This document shows, piece after piece, positions 1 to 11,628 of a stretch of 60,107 bases of DNA. Location: positions 1 to 60,107 of the IMG/VR virus record IMGVR_UViG_2974779775_000001; one strand, given 5' to 3'. The notes beneath the pieces are model-generated. The model did no database searches. It saw only the letters and a list, made by a program, of their open reading frames with translations, and was not told where the DNA came from. Numbering within the stretch: position 1 is the first letter of the stretch; every line of letters begins with the position of its first letter. Source of the stretch: Samistivirus egole (Duplodnaviria > Heunggongvirae > Uroviricota > Caudoviricetes). The translations under genes were made by a program, and so were the position numbers.

Positions 1-211
1 GTGGGGTATGTTCCGGGCGGGAACAAAAGGCATCTACCCTGCATATTAAGGCTAGCAGACACATGGGCCCACGAATCCAAGGCAAGTAGGGCTGTCAAGC
101 ACCGATAATTAGGCCCCAAAAGTGTCCCAAAGTGAGCAGAAACACGCTGATTTCAAGGGAAATGCTGCCATTTTGCCCGAAATCATGCCAAAAATCCCCA
201 ATTTTAACAGT

Positions 212-675
212 CATTCGTAAAGCAGCCCCAATCTAGCCCACATGCAGCCCCGAATCAGCCCATCTTCCTGGAAAATTAGGCAGTCATCGTAAATGGACCC
301 ACCATTCGAAGGCCAATGAGTCTGACAGACCTTAGATTCATAGATGAGGTGTCGATTCTCCCTATATACATGCCAGACTTGAGTCTGATGTGAGAAAAGC
401 CCGGCAATTTGAAGAAGCTTTCGTAAACGAACTAGATAGATACACACGCATTATAGGGAAGGGTAGGTAGTATATGTATATAGGGGACAAGGGTACTCAT
501 CACTACCGGCCTTGAATCTCAGCATGTCTTGTCTCTCATGTATATAGCAGAAAAGCCACCCCGAAGGGTGGCTATTTTTGTAAACTCAAATCCTTGCGAA
601 ATTGTGGAATCTTCCGGGATTCTGAGGCCCATTCGTAAAGGGAATCTCTGGGAAATTTGAGGCCCCATCGTAAAG
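212..675 (+). repeat. Five copies of TCGTAAA (mostly CA(T)TCGTAAAG) in the non-coding left end
   Basis: TCGTAAA at 215, 287, 421, 633 and 668. The last two sit in ~20-bp direct repeats GAGGCCC(A/C)(T/A)TCGTAAAGGG. Confidence 0.75.
554..573 (-). terminator. Intrinsic terminator, UUCG loop
   Basis: On the minus strand AGCCACCC-TTCG-GGGTGGCT followed by TTTCT; a T-run also follows on the plus strand. Confidence 0.7.
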
Positions 676-889
676 GGGAAAAAGTCGGACATAGGGGACA
701 AATGACTGATGATGTTCATAGTCATGATGTTAGTTAGACTAGCTAAGGTGTCCGGGTCCGACATTGAAAGGTCCCTGGGAGGCGGCCGACCTTCCGCTCA
801 TTACCCCTCGCCGAATGACTGATAGGGGTCCCAGGGACACACTTTGTACTACTCTTCTATGTTAGCAAGAGCGTGAGCCTATGTCAACA

Positions 890-1123
890 TCACTTGGTGT
901 AGTCAGGGAACAGGCGTTCCAACTCCCAGTCTTCCAAGAGATAGGCAGAGTGAGTGGGGGAGGGTACAGAGATACTGACAGCCCTGCCAAACTTCTTTGC
1001 CTGTTCGTTCCAGACCTTACCGATGAAAGAGTTGGGAGTGATTCCCTCCACCTTGAAGTAGAAGCTTCCCGAGAGAACCAGGTCACCCATGGACAGTTCG
1101 ATGCTTTCCTTTACCGGCTTCAT
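890..1123 (-). CDS. Hypothetical protein (start 1123 leaderless, or 1090)
   Basis: ORF with its own promoter; ATG at 1123 lies 6 nt from the -10. Confidence 0.7.
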   Translation of the reverse strand: MKPVKESIELSMGDLVLSGSFYFKVEGITPNSFIGKVWNEQAKKFGRAVSISVPSPTHSAYLLEDWELERLFPDYTK

Positions 1124-1129
1124 GTGTTG

Positions 1130-1158
1130 AGTCTACCAGTACAAGAGGGCTCTGTCTA
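1130..1158 (-). promoter_or_regulatory. Early sigma70/HrdB-type promoter
   Basis: TAGACA-N17-TAGACT. Confidence 0.8.
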
Positions 1159-1202
1159 CCCACCGGCCAATTTGTCGGACCCCGACCCCGAAGGGCCGAG
1201 CA

Positions 1203-1502
1203 TCAGAAGTCGGGTTCGTCCATCAGGCTGCTGAACTCCTCTTCCATTTCAGCAATGGCCTCAGCCATCCAGAGGGCTCGTTCCTTCCTGCGAATTTCAC
1301 GACGGTGCCAGCGTCCGTTGTCCAGCTCATCCATGTAGCGGTGGGCAAGGATACGGCTGTTACCCATGACTCCACTGTTACGAGTCACGTGACCACTCCA
1401 CCTCTTACGGTGAAGCCCGGAACGGGGAATCGGGATACCCTTGGCACTGTTAGCGTACTCCGTGGCGCGAACCACACTGTACCAGTCACCGACAGAACGC
1501 AT
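1203..1502 (-). CDS. Hypothetical protein
   Basis: 99-aa ORF, GGGAGG RBS, own promoter, stop followed by hairpin. Confidence 0.8.
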   Translation of the reverse strand: MRSVGDWYSVVRATEYANSAKGIPIPRSGLHRKRWSGHVTRNSGVMGNSRILAHRYMDELDNGRWHRREIRRKERALWMAEAIAEMEEEFSSLMDEPDF

Positions 1503-1528
1503 ATACTTCCTCCCTTTTGCTTAGCTTG

Positions 1529-1557
1529 AGTCTACCAGAGTACAAGGACACTGTCTA
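1529..1557 (-). promoter_or_regulatory. Early promoter
   Basis: TAGACA-N17-TAGACT. Confidence 0.8.
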
Positions 1558-1634
1558 GCTACCGGGCGTTTGTCCGGCCCCGCCAAAAATCCCCTAAACC
1601 CTTTCGGGCTAGGGGACTGGCGAACATTCCTGGA

Positions 1635-2648
1635 TTAGCTGGCCAGGGCCAGGACCGCCTTACGGATGCGGTTCTTCTCGACGTTGACGACCGGGTCAAA
1701 GCCACTTGCGGCGATGAACAGGTTATCGACGTTGCCACCACGCGGCATCCGGTACCAGTCGATACGCTCCGTCAGAGCGTTCAGAGCACCCGCCATCGTG
1801 CCAGACAGAGACTGCGTGGTCTTGGGACCGTCACCCGTGTCGGTGAAGATGCCCATGAGGATGTCACGCTTCGACTCCCACTTGACCATGCTGCCCTTGA
1901 CATCCTTTTCGGGCTTGGGGTACAGGTCCTGAATCAGAGCATCGAACTTGTCCTTCGTGCACTGCACCTCGAACAGAGAGTTCATCTCACGCTCGAACTC
2001 ATCCGCGTAGGCGAACGTGATGTTCAGAGCCTCACGCGCAGCAGCCATGCGACCCTCGATGGTCTGCGTGTGGCGCATCTTGAACTGTTGCTTCACACCG
2101 TTACGGAGTGCAAAGTTCAGCGTGTTCTGACACACGACACGAACCGGGGTAATGCTTGCCTGAACTGCGACAGACCCGTCATGCGACGTGTTGACCAGAA
2201 GATACAGCTTGGTCACGTCATCGTCACCGACCTTGATGTCACGCCCGATGCTCAGCGAACCGAACACCACACGACCATCCTTGATAGAACCGGCAGTCTC
2301 CCAGGTTCCACCACCCGCAAGGATGCCGTCACCGAAGCCGAACAGCTCTTCGTTCTGGACGACCTTGTACCGCTCGCCCACCGTGGCCAGAACGTCATTC
2401 CGGCCGGTGAAGGGGTTGGTACGGACGACCATGTGAGGCTCCGTCACGAAGTCATAGGTGTCGGACACCAGACCCATGATTTCCTTGATGGACTCCAGAC
2501 GCACATCCCAGCCCGAAAGGTGGGCGAGAGACAGCATCTCCGAAGTGGTCAGCTCCCCCTCGAATACGGTTCCGAGGTTGTGCCACGCGGGCTCACTGCG
2601 AGTGGCGAACGCGACCTGACCCTTGGAACCAATCTCAAGACCGTGCAT
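1635..2648 (-). CDS. DUF932 family (phage/plasmid TIGR03299-like) protein
   Basis: AWHNLG...Y.VVQN.E.F...WETAGSIKDGRVVF...NTSHDGS...TPVRVVCQNTL motifs. AGGAGG RBS supports the start at 2648. Confidence 0.85.
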   Translation of the reverse strand: MHGLEIGSKGQVAFATRSEPAWHNLGTVFEGELTTSEMLSLAHLSGWDVRLESIKEIMGLVSDTYDFVTEPHMVVRTNPFTGRNDVLATVGERYKVVQNEELFGFGDGILAGGGTWETAGSIKDGRVVFGSLSIGRDIKVGDDDVTKLYLLVNTSHDGSVAVQASITPVRVVCQNTLNFALRNGVKQQFKMRHTQTIEGRMAAAREALNITFAYADEFEREMNSLFEVQCTKDKFDALIQDLYPKPEKDVKGSMVKWESKRDILMGIFTDTGDGPKTTQSLSGTMAGALNALTERIDWYRMPRGGNVDNLFIAASGFDPVVNVEKNRIRKAVLALAS

Positions 2649-2706
2649 GTTGTGCCTCCTAGGCAGATTGGTGTTAGGGCCGGTTTCCCTGCCCTTCGAT
2701 GTCTCT

Positions 2707-2736
2707 AGTCTAGCAGTAGGCAAGGGGTGATGTCTA
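2707..2736 (-). promoter_or_regulatory. Early promoter
   Basis: TAGACA-N18-TAGACT-N6-ATCGAAGGG. Confidence 0.8.
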
Positions 2737-2840
2737 CCCATGCTGCCGGGCTCATGTCCACAATGTCCGATTTGCCCGTTGCCGGACCCGGACACACGAA
2801 GGCCCCTCCGAAGAGGGGCTGTGTGCGAGCCTTAGCAGAC

Positions 2841-3281
2841 TCAGTACGCGGCGTCCAGGCAGGAACGCTCCCAGTTGGCCAGGTACATGCCGTCCAGCTT
2901 GGACACATAGGCGTCCACGATGTCCTTCGAGTCCTTGAGACCCAGACCGGTCTTCTCACGGAGCTGCTTGATGCACTGAATCTTCTTGTTGGAACCGACC
3001 TCACGGACGATGTCCTTGACCAGCTCCGCACCCTGCGCCTTGACGCGCGCCTCGATGTCACGGAGACGGTTCAGCTCGTGGCTGGTGGGCTGCTCGGCGT
3101 CCTGCTTACCGGAACGGTAGCCAGCCTGGTAGCCCTCGGCGTAGGACTTGTCCTCACGGTTCTGGAGTTCCCCGGCGTAGATGGCCTCGAACATGTTGAC
3201 CAGCTCCATGGCCTTGTTGAGGCTCATGTGACCCTCGAAGTTGTGGAGGGAGGCGAGGAGCTGAGCGCGAAGGTCCGACAT
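2841..3281 (-). CDS. Protein with C-terminal ribosomal L7/L12 (bL12) CTD-like domain
   Basis: KKIQCIKQLREKTGLGLKDSKDIVD resembles the bL12 CTD KI.VIK.VR..TGLGLKEAK.LVE. Confidence 0.75.
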   Translation of the reverse strand: MSDLRAQLLASLHNFEGHMSLNKAMELVNMFEAIYAGELQNREDKSYAEGYQAGYRSGKQDAEQPTSHELNRLRDIEARVKAQGAELVKDIVREVGSNKKIQCIKQLREKTGLGLKDSKDIVDAYVSKLDGMYLANWERSCLDAAY

Positions 3282-3326
3282 GATGTTCTCCGTTTCTAGG
3301 GGCTCCTTGCCCCTTTCGATGTCTCT

Positions 3327-3356
3327 ATCTTAGCAGTACCAAGGGCCCTGTGTCTA
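3327..3356 (-). promoter_or_regulatory. Early promoter
   Basis: TAGACA-N18-TAAGAT-N6-ATCGAAAGGG. Confidence 0.8.
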
Positions 3357-3403
3357 CCGGTCGTTTTTGTCCGGGCCCGACAGGGCCCCGAAGGGCCCTT
3401 CTG

Positions 3404-3844
3404 TCAGAACCTCACACCGACACCGGAACCGTCCAGCGATTCCACGATGCTCTTTGCGGTACGCAGGTCCAGCGTCGGGAAGTGGGCGCGAAGGTGCTTG
3501 ATGCACGCAATCTTGCGCTCCAGGTTGTAGTAGCTGAATTCACTGTTCGCCCAGATGGACGCACGCGCGACCAACTTGGTGTGGTCGTTCTCAGCGGCAT
3601 AGGTGGTCAGACGCTCCCCGTGCGCCTTACCCTGTCCGTAGCCGTCGTTGAAGGCGGACTCCACACGCCCGTTCGCCTCCTTACGGGCCAGGTCCCAGGC
3701 GTTGTTCTCCACCTCGTTGACCCGCTCCAGGTGGGCACCGTAGATGAGGTTGGCCACCGTGAACGCCTTCTTCAAGCTCATCTTGACACCGTTGGCGTTG
3801 AAGATACGCATGATGCGGGCCTCGTCCAGGGTGAAGATGCTCAT
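3404..3844 (-). CDS. Paralog of 2841-3281; divergent bL12 CTD-like domain
   Basis: Same length (146 aa). Shares MSL.KA, EG/DGY..GK and RKIACIKHLRAHFPTLDLRTAKSIVESLDG. Confidence 0.7.
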   Translation of the reverse strand: MSIFTLDEARIMRIFNANGVKMSLKKAFTVANLIYGAHLERVNEVENNAWDLARKEANGRVESAFNDGYGQGKAHGERLTTYAAENDHTKLVARASIWANSEFSYYNLERKIACIKHLRAHFPTLDLRTAKSIVESLDGSGVGVRF

Positions 3845-3889
3845 GGTAGCCTCCAGTCTCAGGGAGCTTGTCTCCCTTTCGATGTCTTT

Positions 3890-3918
3890 AGTCTACAGGA
3901 CTAGTGAGGCAGATACAA
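3890..3918 (-). promoter_or_regulatory. Early promoter
   Basis: TTGTAT-N17-TAGACT-N6-ATCGAAAGGG. Confidence 0.75.
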
Positions 3919-3976
3919 CCCCTCTTCAAAGTGTCCGGGCCCGACACGGGCCCCGAAAGTCAAGGGCCCGGTAGGG

Positions 3977-4312
3977 TCAAGGGTTGGTGTGTCCCCTTTT
4001 CAGTAGTATCTGTTCGATGATGAATTTCGAATCCATCACGCGATTGAATTCATCATCTGAGCGGCTTTCCGTCCTGCCTGCCCATGCATTGAGAATGGAG
4101 ATGATGAACTGAAACATCACCGCCTGCACAGGCTCAGGATAGGTCGAAAGCAGATAGGCGAATGCATGAGGGTCGAATGACCGCTTATCCATTTCGTCAA
4201 TCAGCTTATTGGCCAGACGCTCATACGACGTAGGCCGTGGCGTTACGAGTCGCGCACCCTCATACATGTCAGGTGCGATGATGCTTGTTCGTTTGAAGGG
4301 ACTACGCGCCAC
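3977..4312 (-). CDS. Hypothetical protein (start GTG 4312 or ATG 4267)
   Basis: C-terminal part of the 225-aa ORF. The upstream part of that ORF overlaps two other genes. Confidence 0.65.
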   Translation of the reverse strand: MARSPFKRTSIIAPDMYEGARLVTPRPTSYERLANKLIDEMDKRSFDPHAFAYLLSTYPEPVQAVMFQFIISILNAWAGRTESRSDDEFNRVMDSKFIIEQILLKRGHTNP

Positions 4313-4466
4313 CCTCTCCCCCAAAGTCTTCCGTTGTACCGTATCCGTCTGAGACGCTGACAGACAGGCCCAGCACCTTTGCCATGAACTCTGCCGTAGC
4401 AGTAGCAAAGGGCCAGGCCGTGTCGTGAGCGTCATCATCGGGCGTGTCGATTTCGATGATGACCAT
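4302..4466 (-). CDS. Small acidic hypothetical protein (54 aa, MVIIEIDTPDDDAHD...)
   Basis: Translated by hand; AGGA RBS; fills the gap between the Lsr2-like gene and the next gene. Confidence 0.65.
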   Translation of the reverse strand: MVIIEIDTPDDDAHDTAWPFATATAEFMAKVLGLSVSVSDGYGTTEDFGGEGGA

Positions 4467-4475
4467 GACTCTATC

Positions 4476-4994
4476 CTATCGTGCGTGAACCTCGACGTCC
4501 ATACCGAGCACCACCGGGGAGCCACAGCCGCAGTGCGACAGGCTGTAACCGCACTTGCACACCTCACGCTCCGAGAGACGGATGCGCTTGCCACGGTAGT
4601 AAGCCGTGTACTCGGTACGGTTCGAACGGGTGGGCTCGGCGTGCGGACGGACATCCTTACCGGTCACCTTGACGTGCACACCGGGCGCAGCGGGCTTGAC
4701 CTCCGGGTTGTCTGCCTTGTAAGCGGCCAGCACCTCAGCCGACAGACGACCACGGGACGACACGGTGAGACCCTTGGAAGCGGCCCACGCACGCACCACC
4801 TTGGCATCGAACTGCCCGGCCTTGGGAGCGGCCTTGACGACCTTGCGAGGCGTGGCGTCGGTGTCAGCGAAGACCTTACCCGACTTCTCAGCCTCAGCGA
4901 TGGCCTCGTATGCGGCAGCGCTCATCCGGCCACGGGATTCCTTGGCCAGGCCCAGAGAGACAGCGTACGCGCGACGGGTCATGTTGACGTTCAT
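4476..4994 (-). CDS. Lsr2-like DNA-binding protein with two RGR AT-hook-type modules
   Basis: VRAWAASKGLTVSSRGRLSAEVLAAY matches the Lsr2 C-terminal domain. The N-terminal RRAYAVSLGLAKESRGRMSAAAYEA is a second, similar module. Confidence 0.8.
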   Translation of the reverse strand: MNVNMTRRAYAVSLGLAKESRGRMSAAAYEAIAEAEKSGKVFADTDATPRKVVKAAPKAGQFDAKVVRAWAASKGLTVSSRGRLSAEVLAAYKADNPEVKPAAPGVHVKVTGKDVRPHAEPTRSNRTEYTAYYRGKRIRLSEREVCKCGYSLSHCGCGSPVVLGMDVEVHAR

Positions 4995-5021
4995 GGGGTT
5001 TCCTTCCCTCGGTGTGCACTC

Positions 5022-5050
5022 AGTCTATCGGATTGAAGGCGGAGAGGCAA
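5022..5050 (-). promoter_or_regulatory. Early promoter
   Basis: TTGCCT-N17-TAGACT. Confidence 0.7.
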
Positions 5051-5091
5051 GCCCCGGTGCAGAGGTTGGTTTCCCTCCCCTTCATGTCTCT

Positions 5092-5121
5092 AGTATAGAG
5101 GACGTAACAGGGTCCTGTCTA
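5092..5121 (-). promoter_or_regulatory. Early promoter in tandem with 5022-5050 (no full gene between)
   Basis: TAGACA-N18-TATACT-N6-ATGAAGGGGAGGGAAACC. Confidence 0.75.
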
Positions 5122-5183
5122 CAGTCCTAAATGTCCGATTTGCCCGAAGTCCGGGCCCGACATGCCCCCGAAGGGGCAAGGGG

Positions 5184-5918
5184 CTAAGCCTTTCGGCGCT
5201 TAGAGACCTTGGACGCGAAACGGATATCTGCCTTACCGAAGATGCAAAGGCCACACGTTACGCACGCGCCACCCTTTTCGGTAATGAGAGGAATGCGCTT
5301 GGCATTCTCAGGGCAGATAGCCCCAGGCTTACCAGTTTCGGTAAGCATGAATTCCTTACCCTGTTCGTGAGTCTCAGAGAGATAGGCAAGGCGGACCGAA
5401 GGGAATTCCTTCTTTGTCGCCAGCGCCTTTTCCTCATTCTCACTGTCCACACTCAGATAAACAGAGAGGTTTTCGTGCCCTACGATGTGACGCACGTACT
5501 GGAATGACCTAGTGTAAATCCAGAATTGCACATCCTGGAAAACCTCAGCCATTCGAGCGATATTCTGTGCGTATTCCGCAGAGAAGATATCGCCGTCAGC
5601 GTGCCAGCGAAACAGCTTAGGCGCGTCACGCTTTTCACAGTCAGCCCTGAAACTCTCAATCATTACTGCGAGATTGAGAAACTGGTCCTCGTTAGGGTCA
5701 TTGAGAATGGCCCAGTTGTTGAGAACCAATTCACGATATGCAGGATACTGCCTTTCGAGCTTACCTGCATAGCATACGGTCTCACAGACCTTTGTCGCGC
5801 CGGGGCAGGAAAACGCCTTTCCACTCGGAATGGAGAATGCGTTTTTGATGACCGACTGTTCCCCTCGCTTGTTGGCAAGGTTGGCAGTCTTACGGTCATT
5901 CGTGCGCTTAAGCGGCAT
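5184..5918 (-). CDS. GP88-like / radical-SAM-like Fe-S protein
   Basis: SCPGATKVCETVCYA Cys cluster, FRWHADGD, WIYTRS and C-terminal C..C..C. GGAGG RBS at the 5918 start. Confidence 0.65.
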   Translation of the reverse strand: MPLKRTNDRKTANLANKRGEQSVIKNAFSIPSGKAFSCPGATKVCETVCYAGKLERQYPAYRELVLNNWAILNDPNEDQFLNLAVMIESFRADCEKRDAPKLFRWHADGDIFSAEYAQNIARMAEVFQDVQFWIYTRSFQYVRHIVGHENLSVYLSVDSENEEKALATKKEFPSVRLAYLSETHEQGKEFMLTETGKPGAICPENAKRIPLITEKGGACVTCGLCIFGKADIRFASKVSKRRKA

Positions 5919-6213
5919 TGCGTTCCTCCGAGCTGTAGGGCAATTCAGTGTTACGGACAATGGTACCGAGCGAAACAGCGTTGATTGTCTTGTGTCCAAG
6001 AATCCACGCCATTACGACACGGTGCTGACCATTGTAGACCGTGCCATTCTGAAAGTTGATAGGCATCTGAATTCCGTCACGCTCGCATGACTCAATGAAT
6101 TCATCGCTCATCTCAAAGAAAAGCTGAGTGAAAAGGTCCATCGTGGACTGACCTTCCTCGCGGTCTGCGAAGTCGGCACGGGCAACGATGGCTTCAACGC
6201 TCAGCTTCCTCAT
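5908..6213 (-). CDS. ParB/Sulfiredoxin-like domain protein (leaderless start)
   Basis: F.ESC..DGI..PI....VYNGQHRV motif; TATACT -10 lies 7 nt upstream of the ATG. Confidence 0.65.
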   Translation of the reverse strand: MRKLSVEAIVARADFADREEGQSTMDLFTQLFFEMSDEFIESCERDGIQMPINFQNGTVYNGQHRVVMAWILGHKTINAVSLGTIVRNTELPYSSEERNAA

Positions 6214-6220
6214 GTGTTCG

Positions 6221-6249
6221 AGTATAGCAAGACATGCGGACGTAAACAA
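6221..6249 (-). promoter_or_regulatory. Early promoter, leaderless transcript
   Basis: TTGTTT-N17-TATACT. Confidence 0.6.
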
Positions 6250-6378
6250 GCCCCTAGACGAATGTCTGAAATGTCCGTTGTCCGCCCCGGACATGACTGA
6301 GGGCCCCCGAAGGGGCCCGGTGTCAGAGAAAGATGATTGCGAGAAAGAACACAATCACCACGTACCAGAGAAAGGCGG

Positions 6379-6456
6379 TCAGACATTCTCGCAAACCTCC
6401 CGGTACCAAGAGTAGTGCGTGTACAGGTAGAAGTGAAGCCACTCAACGAAGTGCAT
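6379..6456 (-). CDS. 25-aa aromatic-rich peptide MHFVEWLHFYLYTHYSWYREVCENV
   Basis: AGGAG RBS 5 nt upstream; starts 2 nt after the stop of 6459-6782. Confidence 0.5.
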   Translation of the reverse strand: MHFVEWLHFYLYTHYSWYREVCENV

Positions 6457-6458
6457 GT

Positions 6459-6782
6459 TTACTCCTGACAGAGAGGCAGGCCCAAGTCGTCCTGCATGTC
6501 CAGAAAGTCCGAGTTGAAGATTTCAAGGTACGTGCCACCCTTGATTTCTTCGATACCGAGCATGTATGCCACGATGAGCCTGTGACATCCCTCGTGAATC
6601 ATGTTCTGCTCCTCATCATAGCAGATGGGAGAGACGATTCCAAGGGTCTGGCATGAGTCCATGAACTCATCCGACAGCTCAGACAGCTTGCGCAAGAGAA
6701 GTTGTTCACGAGTGAGACCAAGAGCCTCGGCGTCGTAGAACAGAGCGTTGTCGATGAGTGCCTTCACACTGTACATCTTCAT
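6459..6782 (-). CDS. ParB/Sulfiredoxin-like domain protein, paralog of 5908-6213
   Basis: SDEFMDSCQTLGIVSPI...IHEGCHRLIVAYMLG. Confidence 0.65.
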   Translation of the reverse strand: MKMYSVKALIDNALFYDAEALGLTREQLLLRKLSELSDEFMDSCQTLGIVSPICYDEEQNMIHEGCHRLIVAYMLGIEEIKGGTYLEIFNSDFLDMQDDLGLPLCQE

Positions 6783-6805
6783 TGCTTTCCCCTTTCGCTA
6801 GTACG

Positions 6806-6835
6806 AGTCTACTGCACTACCGGGCCCCATGTCAA
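6806..6835 (-). promoter_or_regulatory. Early promoter
   Basis: TTGACA-N18-TAGACT. Confidence 0.85.
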
Positions 6836-6908
6836 CACATCTGAAAAATGTCCGGGGCCGCCAAAAGGGGCCCCGAAGGGCCCCCAAGGGGTCAAGCCGT
6901 TGTTGTGA

Positions 6909-7181
6909 TTAGTCCTCGCTGGTGTCCTTCTGGCTCACCAGCTTCGCACGACCGAGCAGAGAGGCGTCAGCCTCCTTCCACTTACGGACCGGGCGACCGG
7001 TGCGCACGCGGGGGAAGCGGGCCAGGATGGCACGGGCGCGGGTCTCGTCGGCCTCCAGGATGTCGAACCGCTGGAAGGGAGCGACGTTGGACGTGGCACC
7101 GAACTCGATGTCCACCCCCTGGACAATCATGGCCACACGGAGGGCGAGAGCGTCACGGGCGGGAACGATACCGGCAATCAT
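6909..7181 (-). CDS. Hypothetical protein
   Basis: 90-aa ORF, GGAG RBS, GC3-rich codons, followed by a hairpin and a palindrome. Confidence 0.75.
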   Translation of the reverse strand: MIAGIVPARDALALRVAMIVQGVDIEFGATSNVAPFQRFDILEADETRARAILARFPRVRTGRPVRKWKEADASLLGRAKLVSQKDTSED

Positions 7182-7294
7182 GTGAACTCCACTGCTAGAA
7201 GTAAGCTGGGGTATGAAGTTGTCAGAGACTTTGGCAGGAAGGGAAAAACCTCACGTTGCGAGGCCCTGTGGCCTGTCCCCTTGTGCTTAGCTAG

Positions 7295-7324
7295 AGTCTA
7301 GCAGGCTGACCTACTCGCAGTCAA
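7295..7324 (-). promoter_or_regulatory. Early promoter (-35 inside the 3' end of the upstream gene)
   Basis: TTGACT-N18-TAGACT. Confidence 0.75.
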
Positions 7325-7493
7325 CCAGGTACTCGGGCTCGTCGTCCTCGGAGACGGTCCAGATGTCCGCCAGCCATCCGCTACGGATGACGCCAGCCGA
7401 CACGAACTTGTGCGGCTCAGCAGCCTCACGGACAGCGTCCGCGTGCTCCTCTTCGGAGATGATGCTGTAGCCCTCGGGAATCTCGAACGTCAT
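7311..7493 (-). CDS. Small acidic hypothetical protein
   Basis: 60 aa, GAGGAG RBS, own promoter. Confidence 0.8.
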   Translation of the reverse strand: MTFEIPEGYSIISEEEHADAVREAAEPHKFVSAGVIRSGWLADIWTVSEDDEPEYLVDCE

Positions 7494-7538
7494 GATTGCT
7501 CCTCTCTTGGGGAGGTTTCCCTCCCTTTCGATGTTCTA

Positions 7539-7567
7539 AGTCTACATGAGAGATGGGGCGGACGCAA
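7539..7567 (-). promoter_or_regulatory. Early promoter
   Basis: TTGCGT-N17-TAGACT-N6-ATCGAAAGGG. Confidence 0.75.
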
Positions 7568-7626
7568 CACCCAATATTCGTTAGGCTGCCTAAGTTGTCC
7601 GGGTCCGACCCCGAAGGGCCAGACTG

Positions 7627-7785
7627 TTAATCTCCCATGTCATCCAAGTGAGCATCGGGAGCGGGCTCGAACTCAAGGAAGGTGTCTTCGAAAAGCACCA
7701 TCCATGCGTAGCCCTCACGGTTGTCAGGATTGCACTTACCACGGTGCATGTCACCCGTGGCAGCACCACACTCAATGCAGGTCAC
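7627..7785 (-). CDS. Small Cys/His protein (52 aa, MTCIECGAATGDMHRGKC...)
   Basis: GTG start overlaps the upstream TGA; AAGGAGG RBS; not in the supplied ORF track. Confidence 0.7.
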   Translation of the reverse strand: MTCIECGAATGDMHRGKCNPDNREGYAWMVLFEDTFLEFEPAPDAHLDDMGD

Positions 7786-8000
7786 TCGGCCTCCTTGATG
7801 TCCATGGCAACCAGCATGTCAACCCTGCTGACAGTGAGGGCAATCTCTCGCCCGTCCTTGTCAGTGAAGTTGAAGGTACTTGCCTTGGCAGCGACCGCCT
7901 TGCGCCACGACTCGTTCGTCTCCTCCGCACTGTGCGAAGTCAGAGTGAACAGAACCGGCTTGTCACGGTGGGCCAGGTGAACAGCAACGCGAGTAGCCAT
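7782..8000 (-). CDS. Hypothetical protein
   Basis: 72 aa, GAGAGGA RBS, own promoter. Confidence 0.8.
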   Translation of the reverse strand: MATRVAVHLAHRDKPVLFTLTSHSAEETNESWRKAVAAKASTFNFTDKDGREIALTVSRVDMLVAMDIKEAE

Positions 8001-8045
8001 GATGCATCCTCTCTTCCGGGAGTTTTTCTCCCTTTCGATGCTCTA

Positions 8046-8074
8046 ACTCTACACCATCAGACAGACAGAATCAA
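8046..8074 (-). promoter_or_regulatory. Early promoter
   Basis: TTGATT-N17-TAGAGT-N6-ATCGAAAGGG. Confidence 0.75.
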
Positions 8075-8121
8075 GACTGTCGGGCCCCGACACGGGCCCC
8101 GAAGGGCCCGGCGGGAAGGTG

Positions 8122-8406
8122 TTACTTCTTGGCCTTGGCGCGCTTGTTGCTGTGGTTGCCGTTCATGAGGGCCGTGAAGTCCAGCATGATGTTCTGCTTG
8201 AAGTTGGTCGCTCCGTGGAACTTGCCGTCCTGGTCACGGATGACGATGCGGACCTCGGTGGAGTCGCTGCCCGGAGTGGTCTTCCAGGTCTCCAGACGGA
8301 TGCTGTAGGTGCTCTTGGAGCCCTTGACCTTGAAGCCCTCGGAGATGGTGACGCTGGAGACGATGTTGTGGTTGACGTCGGTCGCCTTGCGAAGGGTAAC
8401 AGCCAC
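8122..8406 (-). CDS. Basic hypothetical protein
   Basis: 94 aa, GTG start with AGGAG RBS. Confidence 0.8.
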   Translation of the reverse strand: MAVTLRKATDVNHNIVSSVTISEGFKVKGSKSTYSIRLETWKTTPGSDSTEVRIVIRDQDGKFHGATNFKQNIMLDFTALMNGNHSNKRAKAKK

Positions 8407-8458
8407 GGTGACTCCTAAGTCTCTGCTAGGGGTTTCTTTCCCCCTTGCTGATAGCTAA

Positions 8459-8487
8459 AGTCTACACGACTCAGCCGACAAGTACAA
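8459..8487 (-). promoter_or_regulatory. Early promoter
   Basis: TTGTAC-N17-TAGACT. Confidence 0.75.
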
Positions 8488-8548
8488 CCCATGAAATTAT
8501 GTCCGAAATGTCTGTCGGAGCCGGACAGGGGCCCGAAGGCCCCTCCCG

Positions 8549-8875
8549 TCAGTCTGCCAGGATGGCGGCCAGACGCTCACGCTGCGCACGGTCATGCGCA
8601 CCGGAACGGCTCGCGTACTCCTGGAACTCGGAGACGGTTTCGACGGAGAAGTGTCCGTTTTCGTCCAGCTTGGCCACACGAACGGTGTAGCGTCGGGCGT
8701 AGTCGTCGTTCCGCTCCGAAGAGACGAAGAACATGGACTGTCCGTCGATGGTGCTGTAGCACATGTCCGAAATGCGCGACTTCCACCACCGCATGGTAGA
8801 AGCGGAGAAGAAGTGGTTGCCCTGGTCCTTGGCGATGGCCTTGGCGTCCTCGATGCTGAACAGAACCTTACGCAT
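8549..8875 (-). CDS. Hypothetical phage protein (GNHFFS..TMRWW.SR family)
   Basis: 108 aa from MRKVLF; GAGGA RBS; own promoter. Confidence 0.8.
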   Translation of the reverse strand: MRKVLFSIEDAKAIAKDQGNHFFSASTMRWWKSRISDMCYSTIDGQSMFFVSSERNDDYARRYTVRVAKLDENGHFSVETVSEFQEYASRSGAHDRAQRERLAAILAD

Positions 8876-8904
8876 TTGGGGTTCCTCTCCCTCGGTGTAA
8901 GACG

Positions 8905-8933
8905 AGTCTATCAGAGACAAGGGACATGCACAA
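8905..8933 (-). promoter_or_regulatory. Early promoter
   Basis: TTGTGC-N17-TAGACT. Confidence 0.7.
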
Positions 8934-8990
8934 CACCTACCGGGCCTTTTTGAAAATGTCCGACCCCGACAGGGCCCGAAGGCCCCTCTG

Positions 8991-9305
8991 TCAGGATTCG
9001 ATGGACTTCTGACGCTCACGCGGGAGCGCAGCCACCTCCGTGATGATTTCGGTCAGACGCTCCTCATCGACCCACCCCTCAACGGAGTCATCCAACACGC
9101 CATTGTCGTCAGGCATGTTGCCCTCGGGGTCGAAGATTCCGCATTCGACTCCGTAGGTTCCGTACGCCTTGACGACCGACAGACGCCATCCGTTCTCGTA
9201 GTTGACGTAGAAGTGGATGCCCGTTCCGTTCTCACCGTGACGCGGACCGAAAGTGACCTTTGCACCCGGAGCAACGTCACGCGCGATGTTGGCAAGCTCA
9301 CTCAT
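8991..9305 (-). CDS. Hypothetical phage protein
   Basis: 104 aa from MSELAN; own promoter, followed by a hairpin. Confidence 0.8.
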   Translation of the reverse strand: MSELANIARDVAPGAKVTFGPRHGENGTGIHFYVNYENGWRLSVVKAYGTYGVECGIFDPEGNMPDDNGVLDDSVEGWVDEERLTEIITEVAALPRERQKSIES

Positions 9306-9336
9306 GGTCTTTCCCTTCGTCGTTTTCGTTAGCACT

Positions 9337-9365
9337 AGTCTAGCAGTCGGATTTTTGAGTCGCAA
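9337..9365 (-). promoter_or_regulatory. Early promoter
   Basis: TTGCGA-N17-TAGACT. Confidence 0.7.
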
Positions 9366-9446
9366 CCCCTCAGACCGATTTTTTAGTCTGTGGGCAAAAT
9401 GTCTGTTTTTTTAGTCGGGGGCGGACGCCCCGAAGGGCTAGCCGCC

Positions 9447-9758
9447 TTACTCCCAGGGCCGGTAGTCAGACCAGTCGGAACCCTCGTGATTCTGAATTTC
9501 GACGGTCACCGTGTCACCCAAACGGTGATTCACGCTGTACAGGGAACGGCTGGAGCCCTGGTAACGCCTCTGGGCCTTTGCCCACTTGACCAGCTTCTCA
9601 GCCTGCTTACGGGAACGGCAGGGCCATGCCTCGATGCACTCTCCGTAGTTGTACCACCATCCGCCCTCTTCCGAGCCACCACAGGCCCGGTCCACCAGAT
9701 GAATGTTCACCCAGTGCTTGTTCCGACGACGCTGACCCATACGCAGACCCTTGGCCAT
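9447..9758 (-). CDS. Hypothetical phage protein (R.CGG.EEGGWWY motif)
   Basis: 103 aa, AAGGAGG RBS. Confidence 0.8.
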   Translation of the reverse strand: MAKGLRMGQRRRNKHWVNIHLVDRACGGSEEGGWWYNYGECIEAWPCRSRKQAEKLVKWAKAQRRYQGSSRSLYSVNHRLGDTVTVEIQNHEGSDWSDYRPWE

Positions 9759-9782
9759 TTCCGCCTCCTTGTTGATGACCTA

Positions 9783-9811
9783 AGTCTAACAGAAGCCTAG
9801 GACAGATTCAA
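9783..9811 (-). promoter_or_regulatory. Early promoter
   Basis: TTGAAT-N17-TAGACT. Confidence 0.75.
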
Positions 9812-9866
9812 TATGCTTGCCAGGATGTACAGTGATTGTCGGACCCGGACAAAAAAATTCGCCTAC

Positions 9867-9927
9867 AAATTCACCCCTCTTTTCTAAGGGAATCTGGGAA
9901 GAAATCCTTGAAAAGAGGGGTGAATTT
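9867..9927. repeat. Perfect 18-bp inverted repeat with a 25-nt spacer in an AT-rich non-coding tract
   Basis: AAATTCACCCCTCTTTTC (9867-9884) / GAAAAGAGGGGTGAATTT (9910-9927). Confidence 0.85.
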
Positions 9928-10181
9928 TTTCTGCGAATGTTTTTCGAAGGTCAGATTGCGACTTTTTCGTCTTTTCCTGCCTCACAAAGGCAGTATTTCG
10001 AATGTGTCGCCTCGATTGCGACAAAGCCGCTTTCCTGATACCTCGAAAGAAGGTTGGCCAGAAGGGACGAGTTGAAAACCGGTGTTTTGGATTTCAGCCC
10101 GTCCCTTTCCAGCAAAAGGGACATACTGTGGAATCGAACCTGAGAAACAGCCTTTTTCCGCATTATGCCCCCCCCTACTGC

Positions 10182-10328
10182 CTAGGCCAGTTCGGACATG
10201 TGCGGGTAGGCGTCCCAGTCGAAGCCGTCCACACGGTCACCATCCTGCACATCGGACACAGGCACCGTGATGGTGGTGAAGACACCAGCGTCGCTGGCCT
10301 GCTCAAGAAGGGTACGGAGGTCAGTCAT
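10182..10328 (-). CDS. Small acidic hypothetical protein (48 aa, MTDLRTLLEQASDAG...)
   Basis: Translated by hand; purine-rich RBS and own promoter; not in the ORF track. Confidence 0.7.
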   Translation of the reverse strand: MTDLRTLLEQASDAGVFTTITVPVSDVQDGDRVDGFDWDAYPHMSELA

Positions 10329-10359
10329 GTTCTTCCTTCTTCCTCTTGGTGATAGCTCT

Positions 10360-10388
10360 AGTCTAGTCTACGTACATGGGGGATGCAA
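10360..10388 (-). promoter_or_regulatory. Early promoter
   Basis: TTGCAT-N17-TAGACT. Confidence 0.7.
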
Positions 10389-10448
10389 GCCCTAGATGTT
10401 CCGGGAATTTTCAGCGCCTATCGTACACGCGCGGGGGAAATGTGGGGT

Positions 10449-10575
10449 ATGTACTTAATGTACCTTAATAGGGCCTATGTACCATATGTCCGATATGTAC
10501 CATGCGTACCTGTATGTACCCATATAGCAGGATATATCCCCTATCCTCCCTATGTACCGAATGTCCGATATGCCC
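10449..10575 (+). repeat. Phased hexamer array ATGTAC/ATGTCC with ~9-10 bp periodicity
   Basis: Hexamers at 10449, 10458, 10477, 10486, 10495, (10504), 10514, 10552, 10561 and 10570. Confidence 0.75.
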
Positions 10576-10691
10576 GTTTGTCGGGGACGGACTGTTACAC
10601 ATCCGTTATCTAAGAAACCCTGTTTTGGTGGTTTGGCGGGCCCTGACTAGGGCATGATGTAGGCATAGCCACTACGGACCAGGGAGACACA

Positions 10692-11153
10692 GTGAACGCC
10701 ACCACCGCCACCCACACCAACACCCACACTGACGGCCGGACCTGCACCTACAGCACGGAAAAGGCCACAAACGCCCGTGTGCGTAGGCAGGTGCTCGCTA
10801 CGGTCCTGTACCTGGCTAGCCTTACGGGAGACAGTGACGGGGCCACATGGGCTAACTGTGTGGGGTGTGGGGAGCGTGCCCACGTGGGTGGTACGCCTAG
10901 GGCCATGGACACGTTCAACCTTGGCCACGTGCACAGTGATGCTGAGGGTGGCATGTGGTGCGTGTGCAACTTCCTTCCCCTGTGCAGGCAGTGCAACGTA
11001 GACATGGGCAAGGAACACATGATGGACCTTCTCACCCCGATGTATGACAATCGGGACATGTGGGACGGTAAGCTCCTCAAGGACACCGGGGCTGAGGTTG
11101 CACCCATGGACAACCGAGGACGTGCCCGCTGGAACGCCCCCACGGGCCGCTAA
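10692..11153 (+). CDS. HNH-family endonuclease-like protein
   Basis: CVGC...LGHV...NFLPLCRQCN zinc/HNH pattern; GGGAG RBS before the GTG. Confidence 0.7.
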   Translation: MNATTATHTNTHTDGRTCTYSTEKATNARVRRQVLATVLYLASLTGDSDGATWANCVGCGERAHVGGTPRAMDTFNLGHVHSDAEGGMWCVCNFLPLCRQCNVDMGKEHMMDLLTPMYDNRDMWDGKLLKDTGAEVAPMDNRGRARWNAPTGR

Positions 11154-11167
11154 GCGGCTTTGAGAGT

Positions 11168-11196
11168 AGCCCCTAGGACGTAGTGGCCTAGGGGCT
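11168..11196. terminator. Hairpin at the convergence of the early HNH gene and the leftward operon
   Basis: AGCCCCTAGG-N9-CCTAGGGGCT then CTTTC. Confidence 0.65.
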
Positions 11197-11391
11197 CTTT
11201 CATGCCCTCAGACGGGCCCTCAGCCCTTTTGAAAACGGCTTTCAACTAGGGTGGAACCTTCCCCGGAACCTTCCCGCAAGAGAATGTCAAGGGATATGGG
11301 CGCACTATCTGGATTGTTACAAAGGTATGCGAAGCATGTATCGTACAACATCAAAAATTACTAACATTTCGCACACCTTTTAATGTAACAA

Positions 11392-11628
11392 TTAGGTAAC
11401 GTCGGGGTCGGACTCTTCCTCATCCATTACGAATGATGGGGGAGGAGAGAACGTCTTTCCCGCAGAATGGGCGTCGAATACGGCTTTCGCTTCGTCAGGA
11501 TTTACAGCACGAGCAATGCACATCATTACGTCGTAGATACGAAACAACATGATTGTCTGTACTATCTCTGATGCATCCTCTGCGAATACATCTTGAGGCT
11601 CGTTGTCACTGTTCATCTTGTCTGTCAT
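11392..11628 (-). CDS. Hypothetical protein
   Basis: Acidic ORF overlapping the thyX stop; start 11628 or 11616. Confidence 0.7.
   Translation of the reverse strand: MTDKMNSDNEPQDVFAEDASEIVQTIMLFRIYDVMMCIARAVNPDEAKAVFDAHSAGKTFSPPPSFVMDEEESDPDVT

Follow-up and report, generated by a model that had tools for sequence, protein, structure and literature searches.

What does the dense row of promoters, small genes and hairpins at one end of this phage genome represent? The DNA analysed (the window, 60,107 nucleotides) comprises bases 1-60107, the left end, of the 135,653-bp genome of a Streptomyces phage of cluster BE1. It was found that the array lies wholly within a direct terminal repeat, as 860-11200 matches 125172-135512 at 100%, and each genome end has one copy of the approximately 21 small genes of this 11-kb repeat. 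A preliminary description had proposed a modular promoter-gene-hairpin array, and motif counts, strand bias and conservation bear this out (Table 1). The terminal repeat is probably an immediate-early module of cassettes that are driven by host promoters, insulated from one another, translatable by the host and exchangeable.

Table 1. Features of the terminal repeat and its cassette units (genome positions)
Feature	Span	Strand	Promoter	Leader, genes and other contents	Hairpin	Palindrome
Terminal repeat, left copy	1-11341	.		first and last 11,341 bases identical		
Terminal repeat, right copy	124313-135653			exact identity with left copy		
HNH endonuclease gene	10692-11153	+		inner array edge, strand opposite to cassettes; phrog_7426, E = 2.5e-88		
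Array head	10380-10691	-		9-bp-period ATGTACC/ATGTCCG repeat field, 10448-10581; block conserved across genera, ~10400-10445 (visible in Karimac and Coruscant listings)		10579-10592 (first)
U1	9837-10394	-	10360-10394	10182-10328 (48 aa, acidic); 9951-10163 (70 aa)	long, U-tailed, near 9877-9931	9837-9850
U2	9413-9811	-	9783-9811	9447-9758 (103 aa; in all three genera)	present	9413-9426
U3	8957-9410	-	9337-9365	three phased GACTAAAAA tracts, 9366-9410; 8991-9305 (104 aa; absent from 13/13 relatives examined)	UUCG, 8971-8986	8957-8970
U4	8513-8933	-	8905-8933	8549-8875 (DUF7447)	UUCG, 8527-8544	8513-8526
U5	8078-8487	-	8459-8487	leader hairpin; 8122-8406 (94 aa, GC3 0.93)	UUCG, 8093-8110	8078-8091
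U6	7596-8074	-	8046-8074	leader box ATCGAAAGGG and hairpin; 7782-8000; 7627-7785	UUCG, 7603-7624, overlaps palindrome	7596-7609
U7	7311-7567	-	7539-7567	leader box and GAAA-loop hairpin; 7311-7493 (60 aa, net charge -13)		
U8	6849-7324	-	7295-7324	leader ~105 nt; 6909-7181	UUCG with U-tract, 6866-6885	6849-6862
U9	6279-6835	-	6806-6835 (TTGACA-N18-TAGACT)	6459-6782 (ParB-like, phrog_4635)	UUCG, 6301-6318	6279-6292
U10	5148-6249	-	6221-6249	ATG 7 nt past -10, predicted leaderless; 5908-6213 (ParB-like paralog); 5184-5918 (Pfam GP88)	UUCG, 5163-5178	5148-5161
U11/U12	3932-5121	-	tandem, 5092-5121 and 5022-5050	4476-4994 (Lsr2-like); 4302-4466; 3977-4312	near 3939-3962	3932-3945
U13	3368-3918	-	3890-3918	leader box and hairpin; 3404-3844 (146 aa, paralog of U14 gene)	UUCG, 3382-3399	3368-3381
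U14	2780-3356	-	3327-3356 (-10 TAAGAT)	leader box and hairpin; 2841-3281 (ribosomal L7/L12 C-terminal-like domain)	UUCG, 2802-2819	2780-2793
U15	1571-2736	-	2707-2736	leader box and hairpin; 1635-2648 (DUF932)	GAAA loop with U-tract, near 1592-1618	1571-1584
U16	1173-1557	-	1529-1557	1203-1502 (99 aa; in only 3/13 relatives)	UUCG, 1181-1200, overlaps palindrome	1173-1186
U17	890-1158	-	1130-1158	ATG 6 nt past -10, predicted leaderless; 890-1123 (77 aa; in 3/13 relatives)		
U18	749-887	-	859-887 (TTGACA-N17-TAACAT)	three-way-junction non-coding RNA, ~75 nt, roughly 770-845		749-762 (last)

Are the promoters real? With the pattern T[TA]G-N3-N17/18-TA[GT]A[CG]T, I found 17 matches on the minus strand between 1130 and 10394 (two of them overlapping), the same number as had been described before, and none on the plus strand; dinucleotide shuffles gave 0.17 on average and never more than 3. 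When the variants at 3327 (TAAGAT) and 859 (TAACAT) are included, the total comes to 18 distinct promoters, and these serve 17 transcription units, of which 12 are monocistronic. The -10 boxes match the Streptomyces consensus TANNNT; 20% of the host genes are leaderless, with a preference for AUG (PMC6742748), and the two units predicted to be leaderless (U10 and U17) agree with this class. As read from the promoter listing, 15 of the 18 have a TG no more than one base ahead of the -10 box. It is likely that some 18 promoters that conform to the housekeeping type of the host (-35 TTG or TAGACA, spacer 17-18, -10 TAGACT, mostly with the upstream TG) are fired leftward by the host sigma HrdB holoenzyme early in infection, each short transcript carrying one to three small genes or, in one case, a small structured RNA. 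As the preliminary description put forward, the array may also serve as a sink for RNA polymerase.

Hairpins with a UUCG loop and a stem of at least five pairs were found 12 times on the minus strand (11 GC-rich and intergenic, one weak and intragenic) and never on the plus strand. Three more units close with other hairpins, namely a 10-nt loop at ~3950, a GAAA loop at ~1600 and a long U-tailed terminator at ~9900. Directly after the hairpin lies a GC-rich near-palindrome of 14 bp, GTCSGGNCCSGACA, with 16 sites (up to two mismatches) in 860-11200 against 0.84 expected and only one site in the 113-kb unique part. The preliminary claim of a UUCG hairpin and palindrome at the end of each unit holds for most units; however, U7 and U17 have neither, while U1, U2, U15 and U18 have the palindrome with another hairpin or none. 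U7 lacks a terminator, since the end of its gene overlaps with the next promoter. The very stable GC-rich UUCG hairpin and the near-palindrome behind it would insulate the units, presumably through termination at the hairpin; since a U-tract is missing from most hairpins, they may stabilise 3′ ends or attenuate rather than terminate. About half of the predicted transcripts start with a conserved leader (ACATCGAAAGGG and a short stem-loop).

Is the array common among related phages? Thirteen relatives, which belong to three genera, have the same architecture, and each shows 15-21 promoter matches. Invariant gene content had been named as the outcome contrary to exchange; the presence/absence and identity matrix is a mosaic over the 13 relatives. 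In three deletions that arose independently, the crossover falls within an element common to the modules: the Cursive and Lululemon junctions are chimeric promoter/leaders with the crossover in the -10/leader repeat, and that of Birchlyn is within the BE2 palindrome of 12 bp. A cassette replacement runs exactly from a palindrome to the next stop codon and hairpin. Selection would put the breakpoints of any phage mosaic at gene boundaries; homology-driven exchange is indicated by the three chimeric junctions only, which directly support the proposed recombination between repeated intergenic units. Homologous recombination would reshuffle the cassettes by deletion, duplication or replacement with their expression intact, because all units have the same promoter/leader and hairpin/palindrome blocks. 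The U3 gene, peculiar to the present phage, has homologues only in unrelated phages.

What is the palindrome for? The same slot holds another GC-rich palindrome in each of the three genera, with 14-18 copies in BE1 phages, 13-15 copies of CCGCCCCGGY in BE2 phages and 16 copies of GGCGCCCGGCGCC in Coruscant; BE1 and BE2 phages have isolation hosts in common. Most likely, the palindrome works not through RNA structure but as DNA bound by a protein that the phage encodes, which could be a boundary, roadblock or shut-off factor. It is unlikely that hairpin and palindrome form a single RNA element (a terminator in two parts or a signal for 3′-end processing and stability) whose genus-specific palindrome results from concerted evolution rather than protein recognition. 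The position of the palindrome is indeed tied to the hairpin (-7 to +8 nt) and not to the promoter (26-70 nt from the -10 box), its first half lengthens the hairpin stem in several units by pairing with the stop-codon region, and it also follows the U18 non-coding RNA, where no promoter comes after it. However, the isolated palindrome folds at merely -1 to -7 kcal/mol, and its S positions are non-complementary in 11 of the 16 copies, so that pairing is not maintained in those copies. Its sequence is kept while its flanks vary, the opposite of the UUCG stems, which differ among units and yet still pair, and the copy at 10592 has neither gene nor hairpin upstream. It is quite improbable, too, that the palindromes are sites of a nuclease-driven, integron-like cassette exchange, nicked or cut by the HNH enzyme, with the promoters incidental. 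They bracket the cassettes, including both array ends at 10592 and 762, the Birchlyn crossover falls in one of them, replacement boundaries lie within 5 nt of one, the U3 gene was captured from unrelated phages, and the HNH gene occupies the inner edge of the array in 13 of 13 relatives (matrix and annotations). On the other hand, only one of the three mapped deletions has its crossover in the palindrome, the other two having theirs in the -10/leader repeat; domain searches of the products found no integrase or recombinase in the terminal repeat, and 12-22 bp of identity suffices for homologous or microhomology-mediated recombination in phages. Since HNH diverges between genera as much as its neighbours do (59-62% in the matrix, against 57-63% for Lsr2 and 59-64% for GP88), a co-variation of HNH and palindrome does not discriminate.

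Codon usage bears on the two remaining alternatives. The repeat genes have a GC3 of 0.73, compared with 0.51 outside the repeat (p = 7e-12), without a change in GC1 and GC2 (0.59/0.42 against 0.55/0.41 in the rest of the phage). It was revealed that CTA, AGA, CCA, TCA, ACA, GTA and CAA are nearly missing from the repeat genes, and exactly these seven codons match phage tRNAs with UNN anticodons. A-ending codons make up 7.0% in the repeat genes of the window, 7.8% in Karimac and 7.3% in Coruscant, against 19.6%, 23.7% and 23.7% outside the repeat. Such avoidance fits translation before the phage's own tRNAs exist; as the repeat genes shun codons read well only by phage tRNAs, the unmodified host could translate them at time zero. 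The tRNA region also has host-type promoters (TTGACA-N17-TAGAGT), so the phage tRNAs may be early too, which weakens this argument, and another possible source of the GC3 shift is biased gene conversion, the repeat being one that recombines often. Sharma et al. (2021) proposed the transfer of a block, given a GC content of 54.4% against 47.0% (PMC8612146). If the repeat were a foreign GC-rich block, taken up whole from a GC-rich phage or bacterium that is not yet sequenced, codons and signals would reflect ancestry, not timing; the GC content of 55-60% over 1-11 kb against 45-50% elsewhere is consistent with this. However, only the third codon position is shifted, GC1 and GC2 being phage-like and far from a donor of 72% GC. 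A-ending codons fall about 3-fold in aggregate and up to 40-fold singly (CCA), T-ending codons only about 1.5-fold; the same bias occurs in three genera whose repeats have only partly common genes, and even the U3 cassette has a GC3 of 0.72. Foreign origin as a block is thus very unlikely. Highly improbable, finally, is a later use of the promoters or their need for a phage-made factor, which would make the array a middle-gene or accessory region. The -35 boxes are often weak (TAGACA, TTGTAT, TTGCGT), and the Coruscant -10 box, TAAGCT, could mean a lineage-specific recognition factor; against this stand the host-type, mostly TG-extended -10 boxes and the absence of a detectable phage sigma domain (Pfam r2 or r4). 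The shunning of phage-tRNA codons would be hard to explain for late genes, and the analogous SPO1 and T5 repeats carry early genes (PMC10531801; PMC13250531).

How does the putative immediate-early module compare with known systems? The two analogues named in the preliminary description, PeSL and the SPO1 takeover module, proved to be the right ones. The promoter-early stem-loop (PeSL) cassettes of the T4-type phages phi1 and RB49 are likewise repeated intergenic modules of a host sigma-70-type early promoter and a stable GC-rich stem-loop, clustered in hyperplastic regions where small orphan genes lie next to them (Arbiol et al. 2010, PMC2839356). There, too, close relatives differ by deletions or replacements that leave one chimeric module, as in Cursive, Lululemon and Birchlyn. 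In contrast to those T4-type myoviruses, the present phage is an actinobacterial siphovirus, unrelated in lineage and host. The PeSL stem-loop lies within or overlaps the promoter, whereas here it lies 26-70 nt upstream of the -10 box, its loop is always UUCG and a 14-bp palindrome that differs by genus comes after it; the array fills the terminal repeat, is strictly unidirectional, and adds the conserved 5′ leader and the codon/tRNA partition.

The SPO1 host-takeover module was reportedly described by Stewart et al. in 1998. It lies in a 13.2-kb terminal redundancy (PMC10531801). Both modules are found in virulent phages of ~130 kb with Gram-positive hosts, where ~20-24 small genes, mostly of unknown function, fill a terminal repeat of 10-13 kb; the operons are short and numerous, and their early promoters, predicted ones in the present phage, are strong and of the host type. 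The sequences show no detectable relationship, as all PHROG and Pfam matches are different or unknown. I know of no hydroxymethyluracil DNA or TF1-type sites, both SPO1 features, in the present phage. Phage sigma factors, none of which was detected here, switch SPO1 transcription, and takeover activity has been demonstrated for SPO1 proteins, whereas it is putative for the present ones. The pre-early (first-step-transfer) region of T5 and other Tequintavirus phages, a 10-kb terminal repeat, is expressed first and is toxic to the host (PMC13250531; PMC5764925). T5 is also a siphovirus with a long direct terminal repeat, its ~17 pre-early genes take up the first 8-9% of the genome, and a size comparison with BE1 phages is already in print. 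Domain searches recognised no relatives of A1, A2 or Dmp among the repeat genes. To my knowledge, neither two-step DNA entry nor an injection stop signal is known for BE phages, and a promoter/hairpin/palindrome module per gene has not been reported for T5. Integrons, too, line up small exchangeable genes in one direction, with an imperfect palindrome behind each, and capture foreign genes. However, their cassettes are promoterless and their attC sites are 57-141 bp long, whereas here a promoter precedes every cassette, the palindrome measures 14 bp, an integrase is lacking and two of three crossovers fall outside the palindrome.

The only domains recognisable (PHROG, Pfam) among the cassette products are Lsr2-like, L12-C-terminal-like, ParB-like, DUF932 and GP88; there are two L7/L12 C-terminal-like and two ParB-like proteins and many small acidic ones. 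The probable role of these products is to reprogramme the host or to overcome its defences, and the Lsr2-like DNA binder under two promoters is among the takeover candidates. The 5′ leader hairpin, the codon/tRNA partition, the genus-specific palindrome and the non-coding payload of the last cassette go beyond what had been described; in BE1 and BE2 phages, the U18 RNA has compensatory changes in all three stems.

The array of small minus-strand genes at 860-11200 lies within a direct terminal repeat, in its left copy. In the 135,653-bp virus record, of which the window is bases 1-60107, the first 11,341 bases are identical to the last 11,341. The phage, a siphovirus of Streptomyces, belongs to the family Stanwilliamsviridae. 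It shares ~95-97% DNA identity with cluster BE1 Streptomyces phages such as Leo04, Peebs, and Samisti12, and a comparison with the phage collection gave 87 matching records, all from phages of Streptomyces. It is known that BE1 terminal repeats are ~11 kb long with 20-25 small genes and that those of T5 and SPO1 are of comparable size (PMC5764925); the place of the Lsr2-like gene in the BE1 repeat is also found in published notes. A literature search yielded no paper describing the regulatory architecture of this repeat, and the 11-kb repeats of BE phages, a large and well-sampled group (87 records), have so far been annotated merely as rows of hypothetical proteins.

The array is real, strongly non-random, and conserved. 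I searched for the promoter pattern T[TA]G-N3-N17/18-TA[GT]A[CG]T, using dinucleotide-preserving shuffles as the null. Between 1130 and 10394, it was found 17 times on the minus strand and never on the plus strand, while the shuffles averaged 0.17 matches and never exceeded 3. The 113-kb unique part of the genome has 23 and 9 matches on its two strands. Adding the -10 variants TAAGAT (at 3327) and TAACAT (at 859) brings the array to 18 distinct promoters, 15 of which have a TG at most one base upstream of the -10 element. By sequence, all 18 have the -10 TANNNT and the 17-18 nt spacing of the Streptomyces HrdB-type consensus (PMC6742748), which has a TTGAC-like -35 and a transcript start ~7 nt past the -10. 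The -35 in the array is TTGnnn or TAGACA. The Lsr2-like operon has two promoters in tandem. Two units, in which the ATG lies 6-7 nt past the -10, are predicted to be leaderless, which is consistent with a Streptomyces host, since ~20% of its genes are leaderless with a preference for AUG (PMC6742748). A search for a phage sigma factor gave no Sigma70_r2 match and a single 13-bit Sigma70_r4 match under the cut-off. Indirect evidence makes it probable that the host machinery expresses the array early.

The array comprises 17 units with 21 protein genes and one RNA; the promoter units are numbered along the minus strand from U1 at the inner end to U18 at the outer end. Read 5′ to 3′ on that strand, a typical unit begins with the stop codon of the preceding gene, followed by a GC-rich hairpin with a UUCG loop and by a 14-bp GC-rich near-palindrome (hereafter the palindrome) at -7 to +8 nt relative to the hairpin. 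A variable spacer, which leaves 26-70 nt between the palindrome and the -10, leads to the -35, a 17-18 nt spacer, and the -10 TAGACT. In about half of the units the leader box AGAGACATCGAAAGGG comes next, its GGG opening a short stem-loop whose stem sequence varies (GGGAG/CTCCC, GGGGC/GCCCC, and others). A Shine-Dalgarno sequence and the ATG complete the unit. UUCG-loop hairpins with stems of at least five pairs number 12 on the minus strand and none on the plus strand; all but one of them are GC-rich and intergenic, and three further, non-UUCG hairpins are predicted in the array. The promoter-gene-hairpin array with a palindrome that the preliminary description had reported is confirmed, with 17 matches, 12 hairpins, and 16 palindromes counted here. 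Its statement that every unit is closed by a UUCG hairpin and the palindrome was too general, as U7 and U17 lack both and four units have a different hairpin or none. The last unit, U18, has no ORF. Its payload is an RNA of ~75 nt with a predicted three-way-junction fold, and when 11 BE1 and BE2 phages are aligned, each of the three stems has compensatory changes. An Rfam search of 1-11400 revealed no known RNA family, the single weak match having E = 0.54. Positions of the individual features are listed in the table.

Coordinates of features in and around the array
Feature	Position in the window	Remark
DUF932	1635-2648	
Ribosomal L7/L12 C-terminal domain	2841-3281	E = 2.7e-8
Tandem paralog of the L7/L12 C-terminal-like gene	3404-3844	
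Lsr2 DNA-binding domain	4476-4994	
GP88	5184-5918	
DUF7447	8549-8875	
U18 promoter	859-887	
U18 payload	766-858	no ORF, predicted RNA
U8 leader	7186-7290	~105 nt
Phased tracts upstream of the U3 promoter	9366-9410	three GACTAAAAA tracts
Array head	10400-10690	non-coding
Repeated word in the array head	10448-10581	ATGTACC/ATGTCCG, 9-bp period
U-tailed terminator	554-573	predicted
Repeated word near the left end	188-677	CATTCGTAAAG / CATCGTAAA
DUF2637-type membrane-protein gene	13.2-14.1 kb	minus strand
GGACA-dense 3′ half of that gene	13200-13600	

Is this organization common among related phages? The repeats of 13 phages belonging to three genera (BE1, BE2 with Karimac and Birchlyn, and Coruscant) were compared. 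All 13 have 15-21 promoter matches, on one strand as here, and 7-16 UUCG hairpins. The leader box is recognizable in Karimac and Coruscant, and in IMG/VR the leader/promoter word had no match outside BE-type genomes and a few contigs. Core genes shared by the three genera are the Lsr2 operon, GP88, a ParB-like gene, an L12-like gene, and a gene for a 103-aa protein; DUF932 is also core, although it is missing in Birchlyn. Around this core, a protein identity matrix of the 13 relatives revealed a shell of variable genes whose identities are mosaic. The U1 gene, for one, shares 72% identity with the otherwise closest phages but 87-89% with more distant ones. The gene at 8991-9305 is absent in all 13 relatives; within the phage collection, related genes occur only in a 120-kb Streptomyces phage that is not akin to this one (40% identity) and in a Microbacterium phage.

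The ends of alignment blocks against nine BE1 relatives lie mostly in intergenic modules or a few bases from a stop or start codon, despite a coding share of 76% in the array; most departures from this are diverged stretches of equal length within the U14 gene. Such a bias toward gene edges could be explained by selection alone. However, three chimeric junctions reveal the mechanism of exchange. In Cursive, 2713-3873 is missing and the U13 promoter is fused to the leader of U15; the sequences change over inside a common TAGACTARAGACATCGAARGGG. In Lululemon, the deletion has removed the U14 gene together with the U15 promoter, and the switch again lies in the leader box. Compared with Karimac, Birchlyn is missing three cassettes (2.1 kb), and its switch falls within the 12-bp BE2 palindrome. 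Cassette replacements extend from just past a palindrome to the next stop codon and hairpin (8996-9407 and 8553-9407), and contigs of four metagenome runs recovered only known replacements, at 869/1570 and 8995/9408. Cassette exchange by recombination between the repeated units, as first proposed from the sequence, is thus borne out by these junctions. Gene order is conserved among the relatives but gene content varies, so the invariance that would have spoken against the proposal was not observed. Modular exchange of cassettes is demonstrated here at the sequence level.

The palindrome GTCSGGNCCSGACA, with up to two mismatches allowed, occurs at 16 sites in 860-11200 versus 0.84 expected, and once in the unique 113 kb. 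In BE1 phages, the slot 3′ of the hairpin is occupied by 14-18 copies of this sequence. The same slot has CCGCCCCGGY in BE2 phages (13-15 copies), which also have AAAGATCTT closer to the promoter (8-13 copies), and GGCGCCCGGCGCC in Coruscant (16 copies). All of these slot elements are GC-rich near-palindromes at an equal position, while their sequences differ by genus. A host factor is unlikely to read the palindrome, because BE1 and BE2 phages have been isolated on common host strains. As an RNA, the palindrome alone folds weakly (-1 to -7 kcal/mol), and in 11 of the 16 copies the S positions could not pair with each other. In contrast, the UUCG hairpin stems vary in sequence from unit to unit with pairing kept in each. 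These features suggest that the hairpin acts as an RNA structure and that the palindrome is a sequence-specific site, most likely for a phage protein. The genus-specific palindrome may serve as a handle for finding a putative DNA-binding factor of the early programme. It was also considered whether the palindrome, as a bracket of every cassette and of both array ends, might be the site of a co-evolving phage protein that insulates or shuts off the early units, as well as a preferred breakpoint for capture. In that case a virulent phage would possess, in its terminal repeat, a self-contained platform for acquiring genes in an integron-like manner, and the adjoining conserved HNH nuclease would be the candidate enzyme. 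I regard this wider proposal as improbable. The HNH divergence across genera equals that of the neighbouring genes, so the co-variation of HNH and palindrome does not discriminate.

Two other assignments of the palindrome were rejected. A restriction-type site does not fit, as CCSGG is not enriched in the repeat. A link to the GACA word field of the DUF2637-type gene was dismissed for lack of co-variation across BE1, Karimac, and Coruscant: the repeat palindromes of Karimac and Coruscant are unrelated to GTGACA, the word that replaces the GGACA of BE1 in their fields. In the window this gene has 16 GGACA and 28 GACA in 950 nt. As for other words, GGCGCC, GCCGGC, and GTCGAC are absent from the whole 135-kb genome versus ~29 expected each, which looks like restriction-site avoidance. 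The cassette palindrome of Coruscant is nevertheless made of two GGCGCC sites. For GGGCCC, the unique part has fewer copies than expected (5 versus 23) and the repeat has more (21 versus 5.6).

The higher GC of the BE1 repeat has been published and was explained as a block transfer (PMC8612146). It was found that GC3 is 0.73 in the repeat genes versus 0.51 in 108 other ORFs (p = 7e-12), while GC1 and GC2 are nearly equal. The shift is mainly in A-ending codons. Within the amino-acid families, the shares in repeat genes versus other genes are 0.01 versus 0.41 for CCA, 0.01 versus 0.18 for CTA, 0.00 versus 0.19 for AGA, 0.04 versus 0.22 for TCA, 0.06 versus 0.26 for ACA, and 0.05 versus 0.27 for GTA. 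All 44 phage tRNAs are encoded outside the repeat, and among them are UNN anticodons that match precisely the avoided codons (Pro-UGG and Leu-UAG, two each; Arg-UCU, Ser-UGA, Thr-UGU, Val-UAC, and Gln-UUG). In this reading, codons served by the 40-odd phage tRNAs are avoided in genes whose translation has to precede those tRNAs, and the pattern readily fits translation by a host that has no help from the phage. The published alternative, a single foreign GC-rich block acquired by transfer, is hard to reconcile with the drop in A-ending codons in all three genera alike (repeat genes versus other genes): 7.0 versus 19.6% in the window, 7.8 versus 23.7% in Karimac, and 7.3 versus 23.7% in Coruscant. 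Biased gene conversion in a recombining repeat possibly contributes to the GC3 shift. The data favour codon partition over block transfer as the reading of the higher GC, and this partition ties together two features of low-GC Streptomyces phages, namely the tRNA arsenal and the GC-rich repeat.

The array resembles the promoter-early stem-loop (PeSL) cassettes of T4-type phages in having a repeated intergenic motif with a host sigma-70-type promoter consensus, known here from sequence. It also resembles them in its mode of evolution, with a promoter and stem-loop beside orphan genes and a chimeric module at deletions (PMC2839356). It differs from them in the hairpin position relative to the promoter (the predicted hairpins here, candidate counterparts of the PeSL terminator or attenuator, being 11 GC-rich intergenic UUCG ones and three others) and, being from a Streptomyces siphovirus, in having neither T4-superfamily membership nor module homology. 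Like the ~20-24 small genes of the SPO1 takeover module, the 21 protein genes and one RNA fill the terminal repeat in short units. By analogy, the array is similar to that module (PMC10531801) and to the T5 pre-early region (PMC13250531) in location and probable role. Compared by annotation, no repeat gene had a Pfam or PHROG annotation matching T5 A1, A2, or Dmp. The array was rejected as an integron, since the integrase is absent (no repeat gene has a recombinase domain) and every cassette has its own promoter. Unlike the PeSL, SPO1, and T5 systems, it has an invariant UUCG loop, a genus-specific palindrome, a conserved leader, a strict one-strand arrangement, and a codon/tRNA partition. It is kin by descent to none of the three. 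PeSL-type modular shuffling has evolved independently in an actinobacterial siphovirus, where the crossovers are located to the base.

Among the gene products, two ParB-like paralogs are found in the repeat, and 8 of the 21 proteins are strongly acidic with a pI of 4.1-4.8, which is compatible with host takeover or counter-defence. For a shut-off of host DNA, RNA, or cell-division functions as in the SPO1-type module, the Lsr2-like, L12 C-terminal-like, and ParB-like domains are hints. The L7/L12 C-terminal domain is the part of L12 that touches translation GTPases. A gene with this domain was previously annotated in phage Riptide (PMC12509530). Both cassettes of the L12-like paralogs are deleted in Cursive and one in Lululemon. 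For the orphan cassette proteins, PDB sequence searches gave no usable match (the best, 5v8e with E = 0.065 and 9g69 with E = 0.004, cover partial stretches), and ESM Atlas scores of up to 0.82 were within the chance range. I infer a host-takeover function for the array; the additional role as an RNA-polymerase sink that was first suggested is conjectural. The analysis supplies experimenters with a map of 18 predicted early promoters, leaders, and boundaries, and it shortlists genes that probably act on the host immediately after infection and could be screened in Streptomyces for toxicity and anti-defence activity.

Several local features were also observed. The tracts upstream of the U3 promoter are spaced by ~21 nt and look like a bent-DNA or UP-like enhancer; this phased A-tract layout is retained in Karimac and Coruscant despite a different downstream gene. 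The unusually long U8 leader begins within the end of the preceding gene, and the U8 promoter overlaps conserved C-terminal codons (..LVDCE) of that gene in all three genera. In the tRNA-rich right arm (81-118 kb of the full genome, plus strand), there are ~17 promoters of the type TTGACA-N17-TAGAGT. Their -10 is mostly TAGAGT versus TAGACT in the repeat, and they may represent a second promoter class or a separate duplication burst. The array head, which separates the HNH gene from the first promoter, has ~12 copies of its repeated word and a ~40-bp block containing GCGCGTGTACGATAGGCGC that Karimac and Coruscant share. Possible roles of the head are an origin, a field of operators, or a stop region for injection as in T5. 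Close to the physical end on the left, a classical terminator is predicted to end leftward transcription ~550 bp from the end, and a word is present five to six times; packaging or end recognition may take place in this region.
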